Shown here: positions 3,763 to 42,858 of the stretch, piece after piece | How positions within the stretch are numbered: the stretch's first letter is position 1 | Layout: every line of letters begins with the position of its first letter | Sequence record: MK327935.1 | Source: Escherichia phage vB_EcoM_G2494 | Direction: 5' to 3' (one strand) | Length of the DNA stretch: 64,000 nucleotides | Program-made: the position numbers and the translations under genes | The notes under the pieces: model-generated | The model's input: the letters and a program-made list of their open reading frames with translations, nothing else | What the model was told of the DNA's origin: nothing | The model's database searches: none

Positions 3763-4533
3763 ATGAATATTATCCGAATAAAACTACCGGAAGGTGTGCA
3801 GAGATTTAAACCATTCACGGTAAAAGATTATAGAGATTTCCTTCTGGTGTCAACTGAAATTAAGATGAATCCAGAAGAAGAACAAACGATTCTGGATGAG
3901 CTATTAGAAGAAATATATCCAGAAGTAGATCCGGCATTTCGTGAATATATTTTCCTGAATGTCTTTACTAGTTCAATTGGTAAAACAAAGATACCGCTTT
4001 GTTTTACTTGCCCGACTTGCAACAAAGAAAGAAAAATGTTGCTTAACTTACAGGTTGAAGCACTAAAACCAATCGTTCTAGAGGCCGCAGGGCTTAAAAT
4101 AACTTTCCGGTATGTTAAACCATCAACCGACTATGCAAAAACGTTTCTGGATGCGATAGAGCGTGTATCTGATGGTGTTAATGATTATCTATGGACTGAA
4201 TTACCGGAAGAAGTTAGAGAACAGGTTATAGATTCAATCTCATTTGCTGAATTTGAAGAAGTTGTTAAGCAGATGCACACAATCAAGATCGAACAAAAGA
4301 TATCTTGTTGTGAAAGTCATGACCTGAAATACATAGGTCTTCTTCCATTATTCAAATTGTTGTTGAATCCAGATGAGTTATTCATCTTTTATCGAATAAA
4401 CCATCTATTGGCAAAATCAAATTATTCTATCAGTGATCTTATGGATATGTTACCGATTGAGAGAAACATTGCACTGACACTGGTCGAGAAAGACGTAAAA
4501 GAGGCAAATAATGCAAAGAACGGGGTTTCCTAA
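3763..4533 (+). CDS. 51: baseplate hub assembly protein gp51
   Basis: 256 aa, divergent from 26 as in T4; CxxC pair FTCPTCNKE. Confidence 0.7.
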   Translation: MNIIRIKLPEGVQRFKPFTVKDYRDFLLVSTEIKMNPEEEQTILDELLEEIYPEVDPAFREYIFLNVFTSSIGKTKIPLCFTCPTCNKERKMLLNLQVEALKPIVLEAAGLKITFRYVKPSTDYAKTFLDAIERVSDGVNDYLWTELPEEVREQVIDSISFAEFEEVVKQMHTIKIEQKISCCESHDLKYIGLLPLFKLLLNPDELFIFYRINHLLAKSNYSISDLMDMLPIERNIALTLVEKDVKEANNAKNGVS

Positions 4534-5620
4534 TGTCTCAATAAAACTTTATCAGGATTATGAGGCATTTCTAAATCATCGCTTTATAGAATTGGGTGCT
4601 ACCTTTGTTACAATGACTCTGCGTGATTCGATTCGTGGGGTGAACGAAGGATTGTTGCAATTCTATGATAATAAGGCGATGCATACAAAATTAAATGGAC
4701 GAGAGATCATTCAGATTTCGCTATCCACTGCTAATACAGATGAAGTGTTTAACCGAATCTATGGGATCTCTCATAGTAATGTAACAATTGACCAAAAATC
4801 CGACAACATTTTAACATTCCAGTTAAAGAGCTATCACGAAACACTAAACCTTAAATTTTCTCGCTCATTGACAAATAACGCTGTTAATAACGTAACTAGC
4901 ATGATTGATGCCATCTATAAGGAAGTTCCTTTATGGAAACCTACTATAAAGGGTGATAACGTTGTTATTCCTCGTTGTCCGTGGGTTAGTACCATAAATG
5001 ACTATATGGATTTTGTGAGGGCATACGGGCAAAGCGTAGAAACAGAGTCTTTCGTGTATTGCTGGGAAGATTTTGATGGTATAACGATCGCTGGACACGA
5101 TACAATATTAAAAAATGAGCCAATACCAGCTATAATCTGTGAGCCTAGACTCATGGGGCAATTTATTGATATGTCGCCTAATCTGATGGTTTTTAATTTC
5201 GAGTGGCAGACTAAGAGCAATGCTAAAGTTAAAAATTCATTTAGCAATGTGACATACACAACTATTGATTTTGTTACTAAGCAGTATAATAAAATTATTG
5301 TTGGTAATGGAGATAATATTGCACACTTTGCTCATGGTGGCGCTTATGGCGATTTAACTTATAAGAATGCGTTTTTGGAAGGTTCTAAACTTGCCACAAT
5401 AGAACAATATGATTCATATGCTACCGCCGTGTGTCACGGTAATTTCTCGTTGCGCCCCGGTATGGTTATTCGATTCTTTGATGAGAAGCAACAAGCACGC
5501 AATGATTTTATTGTTGACGAAGTGGTGCATGAAATTAGCCGAGAGCAATCATTAACTCACCTGTATATGATCGGTAACAGCGAAGAATTACAGGAAGTCA
5601 AATTTGAAGGTAAGATATAA
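4511..5620 (+). CDS. 27: baseplate hub protein gp27
   Basis: QRTGFPNVSIKLY...NEGLLQFYD...IIQIS matches T4 gp27. Confidence 0.85.
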   Translation: MQRTGFPNVSIKLYQDYEAFLNHRFIELGATFVTMTLRDSIRGVNEGLLQFYDNKAMHTKLNGREIIQISLSTANTDEVFNRIYGISHSNVTIDQKSDNILTFQLKSYHETLNLKFSRSLTNNAVNNVTSMIDAIYKEVPLWKPTIKGDNVVIPRCPWVSTINDYMDFVRAYGQSVETESFVYCWEDFDGITIAGHDTILKNEPIPAIICEPRLMGQFIDMSPNLMVFNFEWQTKSNAKVKNSFSNVTYTTIDFVTKQYNKIIVGNGDNIAHFAHGGAYGDLTYKNAFLEGSKLATIEQYDSYATAVCHGNFSLRPGMVIRFFDEKQQARNDFIVDEVVHEISREQSLTHLYMIGNSEELQEVKFEGKI

Positions 5621-13369: not shown

Positions 13370-13399
13370 AAACGGGGCTTAACGCCCCCTTTTTATTAT
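13370..13399. terminator. hairpin GGGGCTTAACGCCCC with flanking T-run
   Basis: 5-bp GC stem plus CTTTTTATTAT; same hairpin recurs at 17933-17947. Confidence 0.4.
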
Positions 13400-13608
13400 A
13401 ATGCACCATCGAGCAATTGCTCTAAGGTGTATCCTGAATAGTCTTTTTCAATCAGGATATATTTTCCTACTCGTTTAATACAACCGCGCATTTCAACGTA
13501 TTCTGCGTAGTTGATGGTACGAGTTGTTCCATCTTCCAGTAATGCAGTACCGATTTCGTTAATGCGGTCATAAGTTACGTCGGTAATGATGATTTCGATG
13601 TTAGCCAT
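13396..13608 (-). CDS. hypothetical early protein (70 aa)
   Basis: ORF with RBS, own promoter cassette upstream. Confidence 0.55.
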   Translation of the reverse strand: MANIEIIITDVTYDRINEIGTALLEDGTTRTINYAEYVEMRGCIKRVGKYILIEKDYSGYTLEQLLDGAL

Positions 13609-13644
13609 TTGATACTCCTTAGTAGTTCGTTTCTGTATGTGTGT

Positions 13645-13673
13645 ATTATGATATACACCCTCTGTTATGTCAA
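13645..13673 (-). promoter_or_regulatory. sigma70-like early promoter (TTGACA-17-CATAAT)
   Basis: minus-strand TTGACA at 13673-13668, 17-bp spacer, CATAAT at 13650-13645. Confidence 0.6.
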
Positions 13674-13679
13674 CAACTT

Positions 13680-13859
13680 TTAGAACATTTTTGAAATTAA
13701 TTCTGCTTTGATTTCGCAGAGAACATCTAAAGATTTCTCGTCACCCGCTTTTGCTGCTTCTGCTTGCATTTTTGAAATGGCTTCAATCTCAGTGCAATTA
13801 TAAGCCGCTTGAACTTTAGCGATTGCGAGGATTGCCGATTCGATGGTTAAGTGTTTTAT
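13680..13859 (-). pseudogene. small ORF (~59 codons) with ATA in the start-codon position (decayed start or AUA initiation)
   Basis: cassette RBS GGAGAATCAAAC followed by ATA where paralogous cassettes have ATG; first in-frame ATG leaves only 29 codons. Confidence 0.35.
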
Positions 13860-13891: not shown

Positions 13892-13920
13892 ATTATAGGG
13901 GATCGATGATCCCCTGTCAA
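13892..13920 (-). promoter_or_regulatory. sigma70-like early promoter with palindromic spacer
   Basis: TTGACA, spacer GGGGATCATCGATCCCC (17 bp, inverted repeat), TATAAT. Confidence 0.65.
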
Positions 13921-13928
13921 CAACTTTT

Positions 13929-14447
13929 TTAGTTATTTTTTAATTGCTCATCTTGCAATAGGGCAATCACATGCTGGCGATGTTCTTCCGATTGAGGCAC
14001 ACCGAAAAAGTTTGTTTTGTAGAAATACTCTAATCGGTCTTCTCGTGTGCTCTCTTCCATCATGATCGCGGGTAGTCCGAGATTTCGGAAACGTCGCTTT
14101 TCTGCTGGCGTAAAATCACTGTAATACATCATAGAATCATCATTACCAGCAATGCTAAACTCATCCTTCATGAAGGAGAATATTGCGTTTAAACGCTGTT
14201 TACCGTCCACGATTTCGATCTCATAGCGAGAGCCATCATCAATCTTAGCCATTGCGATAGCACCAACCGGAAAATCATTAATCAGGTTTTCGATAAACAT
14301 ACGTTTGTTTTCGGTGTCCCATACTAAAGGACGCTGATAATCTGGGTTCATGTTGATATAGCCATCTTCTAACCATGCATCATAAACAGAGATGACAAAG
14401 TTTTTAGTATTGGTATAGTAACGGCGTTTAGGCGTTAAACGGTTCAT
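13929..14447 (-). CDS. DUF262 / ParB-like (GmrS-like N-terminal domain) protein
   Basis: NPDYQRPLVW and VDGKQRL motifs; ATG at 14447 with AGGAG RBS (ORF track start 14483 over-extends). Confidence 0.65.
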   Translation of the reverse strand: MNRLTPKRRYYTNTKNFVISVYDAWLEDGYINMNPDYQRPLVWDTENKRMFIENLINDFPVGAIAMAKIDDGSRYEIEIVDGKQRLNAIFSFMKDEFSIAGNDDSMMYYSDFTPAEKRRFRNLGLPAIMMEESTREDRLEYFYKTNFFGVPQSEEHRQHVIALLQDEQLKNN

Positions 14448-19129: not shown

Positions 19130-19339
19130 TTAAGACCACTCAAGAGTTTTTGAAAACACATCTATCCATTGTTGAGTATATGCGGTTTCTTTCCATGATA
19201 CAATACCAGTAGAATAATGGTTTTTGTTTCCAGAAAAGGACGGGCATTTTGATGCGTCTTCCATCATCTTTTCGGCGAACTCTGGTTCGTATACTCGCAA
19301 GATCTGTTGATATGCTTTGTAGTCTTTAAATTTGCTCAT
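19130..19339 (-). CDS. hypothetical early protein (69 aa)
   Basis: intact copy MSKFKDYKAYQQ... Confidence 0.55.
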   Translation of the reverse strand: MSKFKDYKAYQQILRVYEPEFAEKMMEDASKCPSFSGNKNHYSTGIVSWKETAYTQQWIDVFSKTLEWS

Positions 19340-19604
19340 AATCGTTAACTACCTTATCAGCTTCTTTTATTGTTTTTACATCAACTGCGATAACCCGTAA
19401 AGGTTCGTCATGGTTCCACCAATGATCGTGAATATCGGCTTGTGATTTATCACCAAAGGAATCACGAATATCATTTTTACATTTATAGCTAATGTGACCT
19501 TCATAGTCAACATAAAGGTAATTATCGAAAATCGGCGTTTTTAAGATCATACCGAAAAATCTTTCTTTGTGTGTCTTATCCAGTGTTGCAGTAATTCGCA
19601 TCAT
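19326..19604 (-). CDS. HxHW-motif family member d
   Basis: YLYVDYEGHISY...HDHWW...VIAVDV. Confidence 0.6.
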   Translation of the reverse strand: MMRITATLDKTHKERFFGMILKTPIFDNYLYVDYEGHISYKCKNDIRDSFGDKSQADIHDHWWNHDEPLRVIAVDVKTIKEADKVVNDYEQI

Positions 19605-21479: not shown

Positions 21480-21509
21480 ATTATAGGGGAGTTTAACCTC
21501 CCCTGTCAA
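21480..21509 (-). promoter_or_regulatory. sigma70-like early promoter
   Basis: TTGACA, palindromic spacer (18 bp), TATAAT. Confidence 0.5.
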
Positions 21510-21996: not shown

Positions 21997-22028
21997 TTCG
22001 CTTAAGGGTGGATTCGCTTAAGGGTGGA
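21997..22028. repeat. perfect 16-bp tandem duplication (TTCGCTTAAGGGTGGA x2)
   Basis: two adjacent identical 16-mers at 21997-22012 and 22013-22028; creates the stop of the 22002-22262 ORF. Confidence 0.9.
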
Positions 22029-42262: not shown

Positions 42263-42661
42263 TTAACCCTCTTTCGTCATTAATTGAAAACCACGTTCAG
42301 CTTTTGAGATTTCGCTAGGACTTAAATCGTCACCCACATATTCTAGCATCATTTCTCGGATAATGTCAAGTGCTTTTTCATCACCTGATTTTAACTCGAA
42401 CTCAAGTTCATAGTGAGCATCTCCCATGACTTCGCCGACTTTGCAATAATAGAAAGTGTCTTTGCACATTTCCACTATAGCACCCTCAAGGTCAAGTGTC
42501 AATGACTTGCGGTATGTCCTTACTTGCAATAAAGGAACGATAAGGTCGGAGTTTACGCCTAGACTATCAACATAATGATAGAAATCATCCATTGTTGAAA
42601 AAGTGATTTCTTCTCGGTTGAATAGTCCAGATTCACGATCACCTATTTTGAGCATGATCAA
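42263..42661 (-). CDS. hypothetical protein (132 aa)
   Basis: ORF. Confidence 0.5.
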   Translation of the reverse strand: MIMLKIGDRESGLFNREEITFSTMDDFYHYVDSLGVNSDLIVPLLQVRTYRKSLTLDLEGAIVEMCKDTFYYCKVGEVMGDAHYELEFELKSGDEKALDIIREMMLEYVGDDLSPSEISKAERGFQLMTKEG

Positions 42662-42858
42662 TGATCTATTAACGTCAAGTCTAGATAAATTCCTTTTCGA
42701 CGCAGTGCATGATCTTCGTTATCATAATAAAATTCGTGTTTTAGTGTGTTAGCATGATCTACGATATTGTACCCGTCATACATTGCTACCCACAAATCAC
42801 AGATTGTTTCGACGCCAATTTGTGAGTGTGCATAGTATTTTAATTCAAGTTCTTTCAT
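42658..42858 (-). CDS. hypothetical protein (66 aa)
   Basis: ORF. Confidence 0.45.
   Translation of the reverse strand: MKELELKYYAHSQIGVETICDLWVAMYDGYNIVDHANTLKHEFYYDNEDHALRRKGIYLDLTLIDH

Follow-up and report, generated by a model that had tools for sequence, protein, structure and literature searches.

A 59-codon gene of Escherichia phage vB_EcoM_G2494 has ATA in the position of its start codon, where the other phages that carry the gene have ATG. The allele is very probably the product of a recent G>A start-codon transition in one lineage, and a null or strong hypomorph of a dispensable early gene. The start mutation is an ordinary lesion and involves no new initiation mechanism, and a conserved or programmed AUA start is refuted by the comparison with relatives. 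The phage (MK327935; Korf et al. 2019) is a Krischvirus with a genome of 168,327 bp, obtained from pig manure in 2016 (Hameln) and sequenced at 51.6x with PacBio RSII or MiSeq (PMC6563267). The window, as the term is used here, is the whole stretch of 64,000 nucleotides that was analysed, and all positions refer to it (Table 1).

The initiation region

The PeSL (promoter-early stem-loop) elements described in RB49 and phi1 (Arbiol et al. 2010, PMC2839356; Comeau et al. 2014, PMC4122927) are built of an AT-rich region, sigma-70 consensus boxes and a G/C stem-loop, and end in a Shine-Dalgarno (SD) sequence and the downstream gene's start codon. In the commonest PeSL subclass the stem-loop lies between the boxes (PMC2839356). 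The elements cluster in hyperplastic regions rich in small ORFs of unknown function (PMC2839356; PMC4122927). Promoter and terminator activities have been shown experimentally with lacZ fusions for other PeSL copies. One cloned PeSL yielded about 13,000 Miller units, and PeSL promoters are hard to clone owing to their strength (PMC2839356).

Table 1. Features of the locus in window coordinates
Feature	Position	Strand	Remark
Upstream 172-aa gene, GmrSD_N/DUF262 domain	13929..14447	minus	Pfam PF03235 E=5e-20; exact match QBO63152.1 (G2494_00191)
PeSL early promoter TTGACA 13920-13915 / TATAAT 13897-13892	13892..13920	minus	spacer 17 nt
Stem-loop GGGGATC-ATC-GATCCCC between -35 and -10 boxes	13914-13898	minus	read from sequence
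Shine-Dalgarno AAAGGAG	13874-13868	minus	8-nt spacer to start position; conserved in orthologues
ATA in start-codon position	13859-13857	minus	private G>A at 13857
59-codon frame + TAA, orthologue of RB49ORF186c / phi1p186 / EpJSE_00193	13680..13859	minus	phrog_20811
Codon 11 CTC (Leu), second private substitution; relatives ATC (Ile)	13827..13829, change at 13829	minus	multiple alignment
Met31-to-stop remnant, 29 aa, annotated G2494_00190 (QBO63151.1, "hypothetical protein")	13680..13769	minus	no upstream SD
Next PeSL-type promoter TTGACA / 17-nt spacer / CATAAT	13645..13673	minus	11/12 consensus; annotated in GEC-3S
Downstream 70-aa gene, RB49ORF185c orthologue, phrog_10679, intact	13396..13608	minus	own promoter, RBS, ATG
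Intrinsic-terminator-like hairpin closing the small-gene block before alt	13374..13388	minus	annotated terminator in GEC-3S

The cassette in front of the ATA frame resembles these elements in nearly every part. A consensus scan scored its promoter 12/12 against the sigma-70 consensus, in line with the consensus promoter of the preliminary description, and the orthologous locus of GEC-3S is annotated with a promoter at the same place. An AT-rich segment, TAAAAAAGTTG, stands directly 5′ of the TTGACA at 13920, as in the upstream region of a PeSL. The G/C stem is retained in relatives and the loop and stem-edge bases vary, again as in a PeSL. On the minus strand the leader 3′ of TATAAT reads ACACACATACCGAAACGAAAGGAGAATCAAAC. 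At the 3′ end of the element the SD sequence stands at normal spacing, and the start position is occupied by ATA in the window and by ATG in the orthologous cassettes.

Sister cassettes at 21509, 16297, 16053 and 13673 (minus) share the leader ACACACATAC..GAAACGAA..GGAG and place ATG 6-9 nt after GGAG; thus the ATA is exactly in the proper start position. The earlier statement that a standard cassette ribosome-binding site (RBS) is followed at normal spacing by ATA therefore holds (AAAGGAG plus 8 nt). Two copies of the 40-nt cassette core are present in the window (0 expected by chance), and at least seven cassettes of the PeSL type lie on the minus strand, in keeping with the repetition and clustering of PeSLs. 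The G2494 copy thus shares with the PeSL ORFan cassettes of RB49 and phi1 the AT-rich region, boxes, stem-loop, 3′ SD, small ORF of unknown function, site in a hyperplastic region by alt and genomic repetition. It differs in that the described cassettes end in a downstream start codon, in whose place it has ATA. Judged on these parts it is a PeSL element, the start codon excepted, with predicted promoter and attenuator activity. The leader RNA had no significant structure in either the ATA or the ATG version, folding no better than shuffled sequence, and no Rfam match was obtained.

The leader of the next cassette carries a private change of its own at 13640 (minus), where C>A gives ACACACATAC as in the upstream cassette; 18/18 relatives have ACACCCATAC. 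It could have arisen by point mutation, or by gene conversion over a short stretch between the neighbouring PeSLs. A likeness between leaders was also found in a different, uncultured phage (L026 2920-3003, Logan SRR12352302 contig). A homologue of 62 aa in it (P0009, 61% identical to the window protein) is preceded by a TTGACA...TAGAAT promoter and by a leader, GCACATACCGAAGCGAAAC, similar to that of the Krischvirus PeSL, ACACATACCGAAACGAAAG. From this likeness the leader seems to travel together with the gene.

The ATA frame consists of ATA and 58 sense codons followed by TAA at 13682-13680 (minus), as had been estimated, and its translation is IKHLTIESAILAIAKVQAAYNCTEIEAISKMQAEAAKAGDEKSLDVLCEIKAELISKMF*. 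An in-frame TAA upstream of the ATA sits inside the -10 box. There is no ATG, GTG or TTG in frame between this TAA and the ATA, and none before codon 31, so the preliminary description was right in finding no such start near the RBS, as it was in all its other details. The first canonical in-frame start is the ATG of codon 31 (13769-13767, minus), and sequence inspection found no SD 5′ of it. Since it has no canonical start before codon 31, the frame was missing from the mechanical list of open reading frames. A 35-aa ORF beginning with TTG (13923-13816) was rejected as an alternative start, as its first codon falls within the -35 box and its frame is a different one.

The RB49ORF186c family

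A 180-nt CDS is annotated on exactly this frame in JSE (EpJSE_00193), RB49 (RB49ORF186c), GEC-3S (BN201_0191), Phi1 (phi1p186) and all other fetched records. The locus is shared with the orthologues, lying between the GmrSD_N-domain gene and ORF185/alt. Its identity is 99.3% to the locus of Escherichia phage JSE and 96-98% to those of about 40 further coliphages of Krischvirus (RB49-like, T4-type). Across 20 kb, the best-matching records reach 96-97% identity with the window. The window protein is 93-98% identical in amino acids to the Krischvirus orthologues over 59 residues. With query residue 1 set to Met, it matched phrog_20811 (annotated “unknown function”) over positions 1-59 of 59 (E=1.1e-41). 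Members of the family begin with Met (ATG), unlike the window copy, which has Ile (ATA) at position 1 and Leu for Ile at position 11. The protein of G2248, whose allele has ATG, differs from the window copy at these two residues only.

Several lines of evidence bear on whether the frame is a gene. Among 14 distinct alleles mean pairwise pS was 0.067 and pN 0.017, giving a pN/pS of about 0.25. The length is 59 aa in all copies examined except three, and in two relatives the indels, one of 15 bp (phage kvi) and one of 81 bp (an ENA contig), are in frame. A profile search of 1.8 billion representative proteins returned 43 small proteins at E<1e-3, all unannotated. Diverged homologues, from other uncultured phages, are 59-76% identical to the window protein, have 58-62 aa and a Met start, and share the motif KAGDE.SL.VLCEIK. 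One of the profile matches (P0020) is QBO63151.1 itself, identical to window residues 31-59. AlphaFold2, run with the family alignment, predicted a bundle of three helices, which span residues 6-20, 24-38 and 41-58 (mean pLDDT 90). Foldseek with the predicted fold found nothing in the PDB at E<1, and the best fold match in BFVD was an uncharacterised 52-aa Cellulophaga phage protein (E=0.04, TM 0.81).

The frame is on these comparative grounds a real protein-coding gene, given its pN/pS, conserved length, in-frame indels, distant homologues and confident fold. The preliminary description had allowed that orthologues might show the region to be non-coding; they point the other way. That the stretch is a non-coding spacer or RNA between two cassettes, its open frame a coincidence, is a reading that comparison with relatives refutes. 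The 59-aa protein is very small and has no Pfam match, as such a spacer would allow. However, the substitution pattern, the in-frame indels, the full-length PHROG match, the retention of length and Met start in homologues of 59-76% identity and the predicted fold all argue against it, as does the lack of an Rfam match or significant RNA structure. From its cassette, the 59-aa protein is predicted to be an immediate-early product of host RNA polymerase.

The start codon and other lesions among relatives

The preliminary description had proposed ortholog comparison as a check, and the result was uniform. The start codon was ATG in 18/18 fetched loci carrying the gene and ATA in the window only, and a four-way alignment of the initiation region showed no difference besides this codon. 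None of the 43 gene-carrying GenBank phage records was perfectly matched by a 58-nt query with the ATA at its centre. When the query was given ATG, each of the 43 gained exactly one extra match and 27 became perfect; no record was aligned through the codon 11 base in this search. The Met version of the protein recovered residues 1-59 in 42 of the 43 records by tblastn, and residues 1-57 in ELT4. An exact 28-mer scan found no ATA allele in IMG/VR or JGI metagenome contigs, and a pattern scan with NNN at the start gave no match in metagenome contigs or GTDB genome contigs. The gene is essentially confined to isolate genomes and a few Logan/ENA assemblies. With ATG in 43/43 records and no match to the ATA allele in these scans, the ATA is private to the G2494 genome.

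Over 857 alignment columns surrounding the locus, four substitutions are private to the window (0-28 in other isolates), and two of the four fall in this gene, at the start codon and in Ile11>Leu. In a CDS-by-CDS comparison with 79 JSE genes, the only lost start was that of this gene, and all large genes were intact. An ACG at 19345, ATG in JSE, was rejected as a second non-canonical start, as an ATG two codons downstream serves. At 19337-19345 (minus) JSE annotates ATGATTATG as the start of EpJSE_00207 and the window has ACGATTATG; the second ATG, which overlaps the stop region of the upstream gene, is probably the true start in both phages. A 32-aa fragment of a distant homologue (P0028), of the Met31 type, was likewise rejected as a second start loss because it is cut by the contig end.

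The gene was present in 43 of about 64 records matching the surrounding 20 kb, and about a third of Krischvirus records are without it. Other lesions were found where it is present. A nonsense allele, GAG>TAG at codon 41, occurs in a 167.8-kb ENA contig (ERZ11466806) and a Logan contig (SRR11489781; P0011). In ERZ27298264 an 81-bp deletion between direct repeats ATTTCAAAAATG leaves 32 aa (P0013), and in phage kvi a 15-bp in-frame deletion removes residues 5-9. In ELT4 (OM803178), at 429-858 of the fetched locus, the ORF186 homologue has lost its stop through one additional A in an A-run close to its 3′ end, and the annotated CDS, shifted by +1, reads through the next PeSL cassette into ORF185 to give a 154-aa fusion. 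The extra A may be a homopolymer sequencing error. The absence of the gene from about a third of records and the independent lesions elsewhere mark it, on sequence evidence, as a dispensable accessory gene.

Private lesions were also observed in other genes of the window. At 21997-22028 (minus) the EpJSE_00218 homologue is thrown out of frame by a private tandem duplication of 16 nt (TCCACCCTTAAGCGAA x2), leaving 86 aa and 40 aa instead of 114 aa; the duplication is absent in 21/21 relatives with the gene. At 42684/42685 (minus, within 42263-42858) a conserved 198-aa gene, located between dsbA and rnh, is broken into 66 aa and 132 aa by a private 1-nt deletion (JSE TTTATGCTCGAC, window TTTAT-CTAGAC). 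This gene is named “inorganic triphosphatase” or “adenylate cyclase” in some records, and the deleted base is retained in 57/57 relatives; the frameshift could be genuine, or the deletion could be an indel of the long-read consensus. The gene for the gp27 baseplate hub (4511-5617, plus) is one continuous frame in the window and is annotated as two overlapping CDSs, EpJSE_00183 and EpJSE_00184, in JSE, so the frameshift or annotation problem is on the JSE side.

Effect and origin of the ATA allele

[quoted passage not shown] In the mechanism we propose, the PeSL cassette, with its strong host-sigma-70 early promoter, terminator-like stem-loop and strong SD, would drive synthesis of a 59-aa early accessory protein, and a G>A change in one phage lineage would have converted ATG to ATA at the start codon. 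Transcription and binding of the 30S subunit to AAAGGAG would be unaffected by the change. Only codon-anticodon pairing in the P site would be hit, the third-base A facing C34 of the initiator tRNA, and going by published measurements translation would drop to a few percent of normal. The allele would bring no selective benefit. Its tolerance would be explained by the accessory nature of the gene and by the separate promoter and RBS of the downstream gene. The latter gene is 100% identical to that of JSE, and polar effects are not expected, given its own promoter, RBS and ATG and the terminator before alt. The stop of the upstream GmrSD_N gene lies 70 nt before the ATA, so the two genes are not translationally coupled.

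What was found agrees with a null allele in that the orthologues are intact with canonical starts, whereas in the window copy no other start is preceded by an RBS; among members of phrog_20811 it departs from a canonical start altogether, having ATA and nothing canonical before codon 31. No further degenerative lesions (frameshifts or stops) were found in the window copy, and the one extra private change is the conservative Ile>Leu. The want of any sign of decay beyond the start codon was counted against a null allele, and the intact frame is consistent with a very recent event. The preliminary description had left the choice between a freshly inactivated gene and rare AUA initiation. The former is supported by the private G>A in an otherwise intact gene; the latter survives only as leaky residual initiation and fails as a conserved or programmed start.

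The likely size of that residue can be set against published values. In E. coli in vivo a GFP reporter starting with AUA gave 1-2% of the AUG output, and further reporters gave 0.02-3% (bioRxiv 10.1101/063800). As summarised in the review PMC5499595, AUA gave 7.5% of AUG in a phage HB-3 hydrolase construct, and AUG>AUA in T4 rIIB cut translation by about 85% at 25 C, to about 15%, with a temperature-sensitive phenotype (Belin et al. 1979). In vitro, with an optimised initiation region, the AUA/AUG ratio was 0.95 when the extracts came from cells grown in rich medium and 0.56 when they came from minimal medium (PMC5499595). The rIIB case, in which the loss is leaky rather than a clean null, is the closest precedent for the G2494 allele: both are the same base change at the same codon position, in early genes of T4-type phages of E. 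coli. The two differ in that rIIB was a laboratory mutant with a measured phenotype, whereas the G2494 allele comes from an environmental isolate and was read from sequence alone. Some full-length, fMet-initiated protein is probably still made from the G2494 allele, and given the strong SD and the very strong PeSL class the residual protein could be substantial.

A different origin for the ATA would be selection for a working start that tunes a dose-sensitive early protein encoded behind an extremely strong promoter, through lower or temperature- or nutrient-dependent output, in the manner of the infC AUU. We consider this improbable. The near parity of AUA and AUG in vitro in a strong initiation region (PMC5499595), the intact remainder of the ORF and the difficulty of cloning PeSL promoters on account of their strength (PMC2839356) would fit it, and full expression could sometimes be costly in a gene so repeatedly lesioned in nature. 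On the other hand, the ATA is found in one genome only, against ATG in 43/43 other records, and in vivo AUA reaches only 0.02-3% of AUG (bioRxiv 10.1101/063800). Regulated non-AUG starts are phylogenetically conserved (PMC5499595), and the G2494 ATA is not. The AUU starts of infC and pcnB in E. coli share with it a near-cognate AUN triplet correctly spaced behind an SD, but they are conserved among orthologues and linked to IF3 autoregulation, whereas the G2494 ATA is private and has no evident regulatory logic. The ATA could also be grouped with the nonsense, deletion and frameshift alleles as the outcome of recurrent selection to lower or abolish the protein, the ATA serving as an adaptive “dimmer” and not as neutral decay. 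In such a case some E. coli hosts may, for example, sense the protein and mount an abortive-infection defence, or the full output of the strong promoter may be toxic. This proposal is unlikely as well; the tally of lesions covers this gene only.

The chance that the A at 13857 is a consensus or base-call error, or a variant that arose during laboratory propagation of the sequenced lysate, is slim. Substitution errors are very rare at about 50x on PacBio HGAP or MiSeq/SPAdes, judging from general error profiles, and these are the methods given for MK327935 (PMC6563267). The allele is known from a single assembly, whose 51.6x is the lowest coverage among neighbouring entries in the authors' table (PMC6563267), and the same window has the private 1-nt deletion in the conserved 198-aa gene that could be a long-read consensus indel. 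Against this, the four private substitutions in 857 columns lie within the range of other isolates, the large conserved genes are intact, and the 16-nt tandem duplication, another private lesion, is a biological type of mutation. A base-call error at 13857 is therefore unlikely, and a recent start-codon mutation in the phage itself remains the preferred reading.

The deposited record agrees with the window at protein level, as its QBO63149 (Alt), QBO63152 (GmrSD_N domain), QBO63153 (109 aa) and QBO63213 (RNase H) each have an exact counterpart there. Only the Met31 remnant is annotated in place of the 59-aa protein, so the deposited MK327935 already carries the ATA. The correct description of G2494_00190 is a start-codon (ATG>ATA) allele of a 59-aa RB49ORF186c-family gene, and the chief value of the finding lies in this annotation. 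The G2494 ATA also adds one natural example beside the classic T4 rIIB AUG>AUA case, and a cassette gene is seen to be dispensable and repeatedly damaged in nature. Should the protein turn out to trigger a host defence, or to counter one, such natural loss alleles would be useful material.
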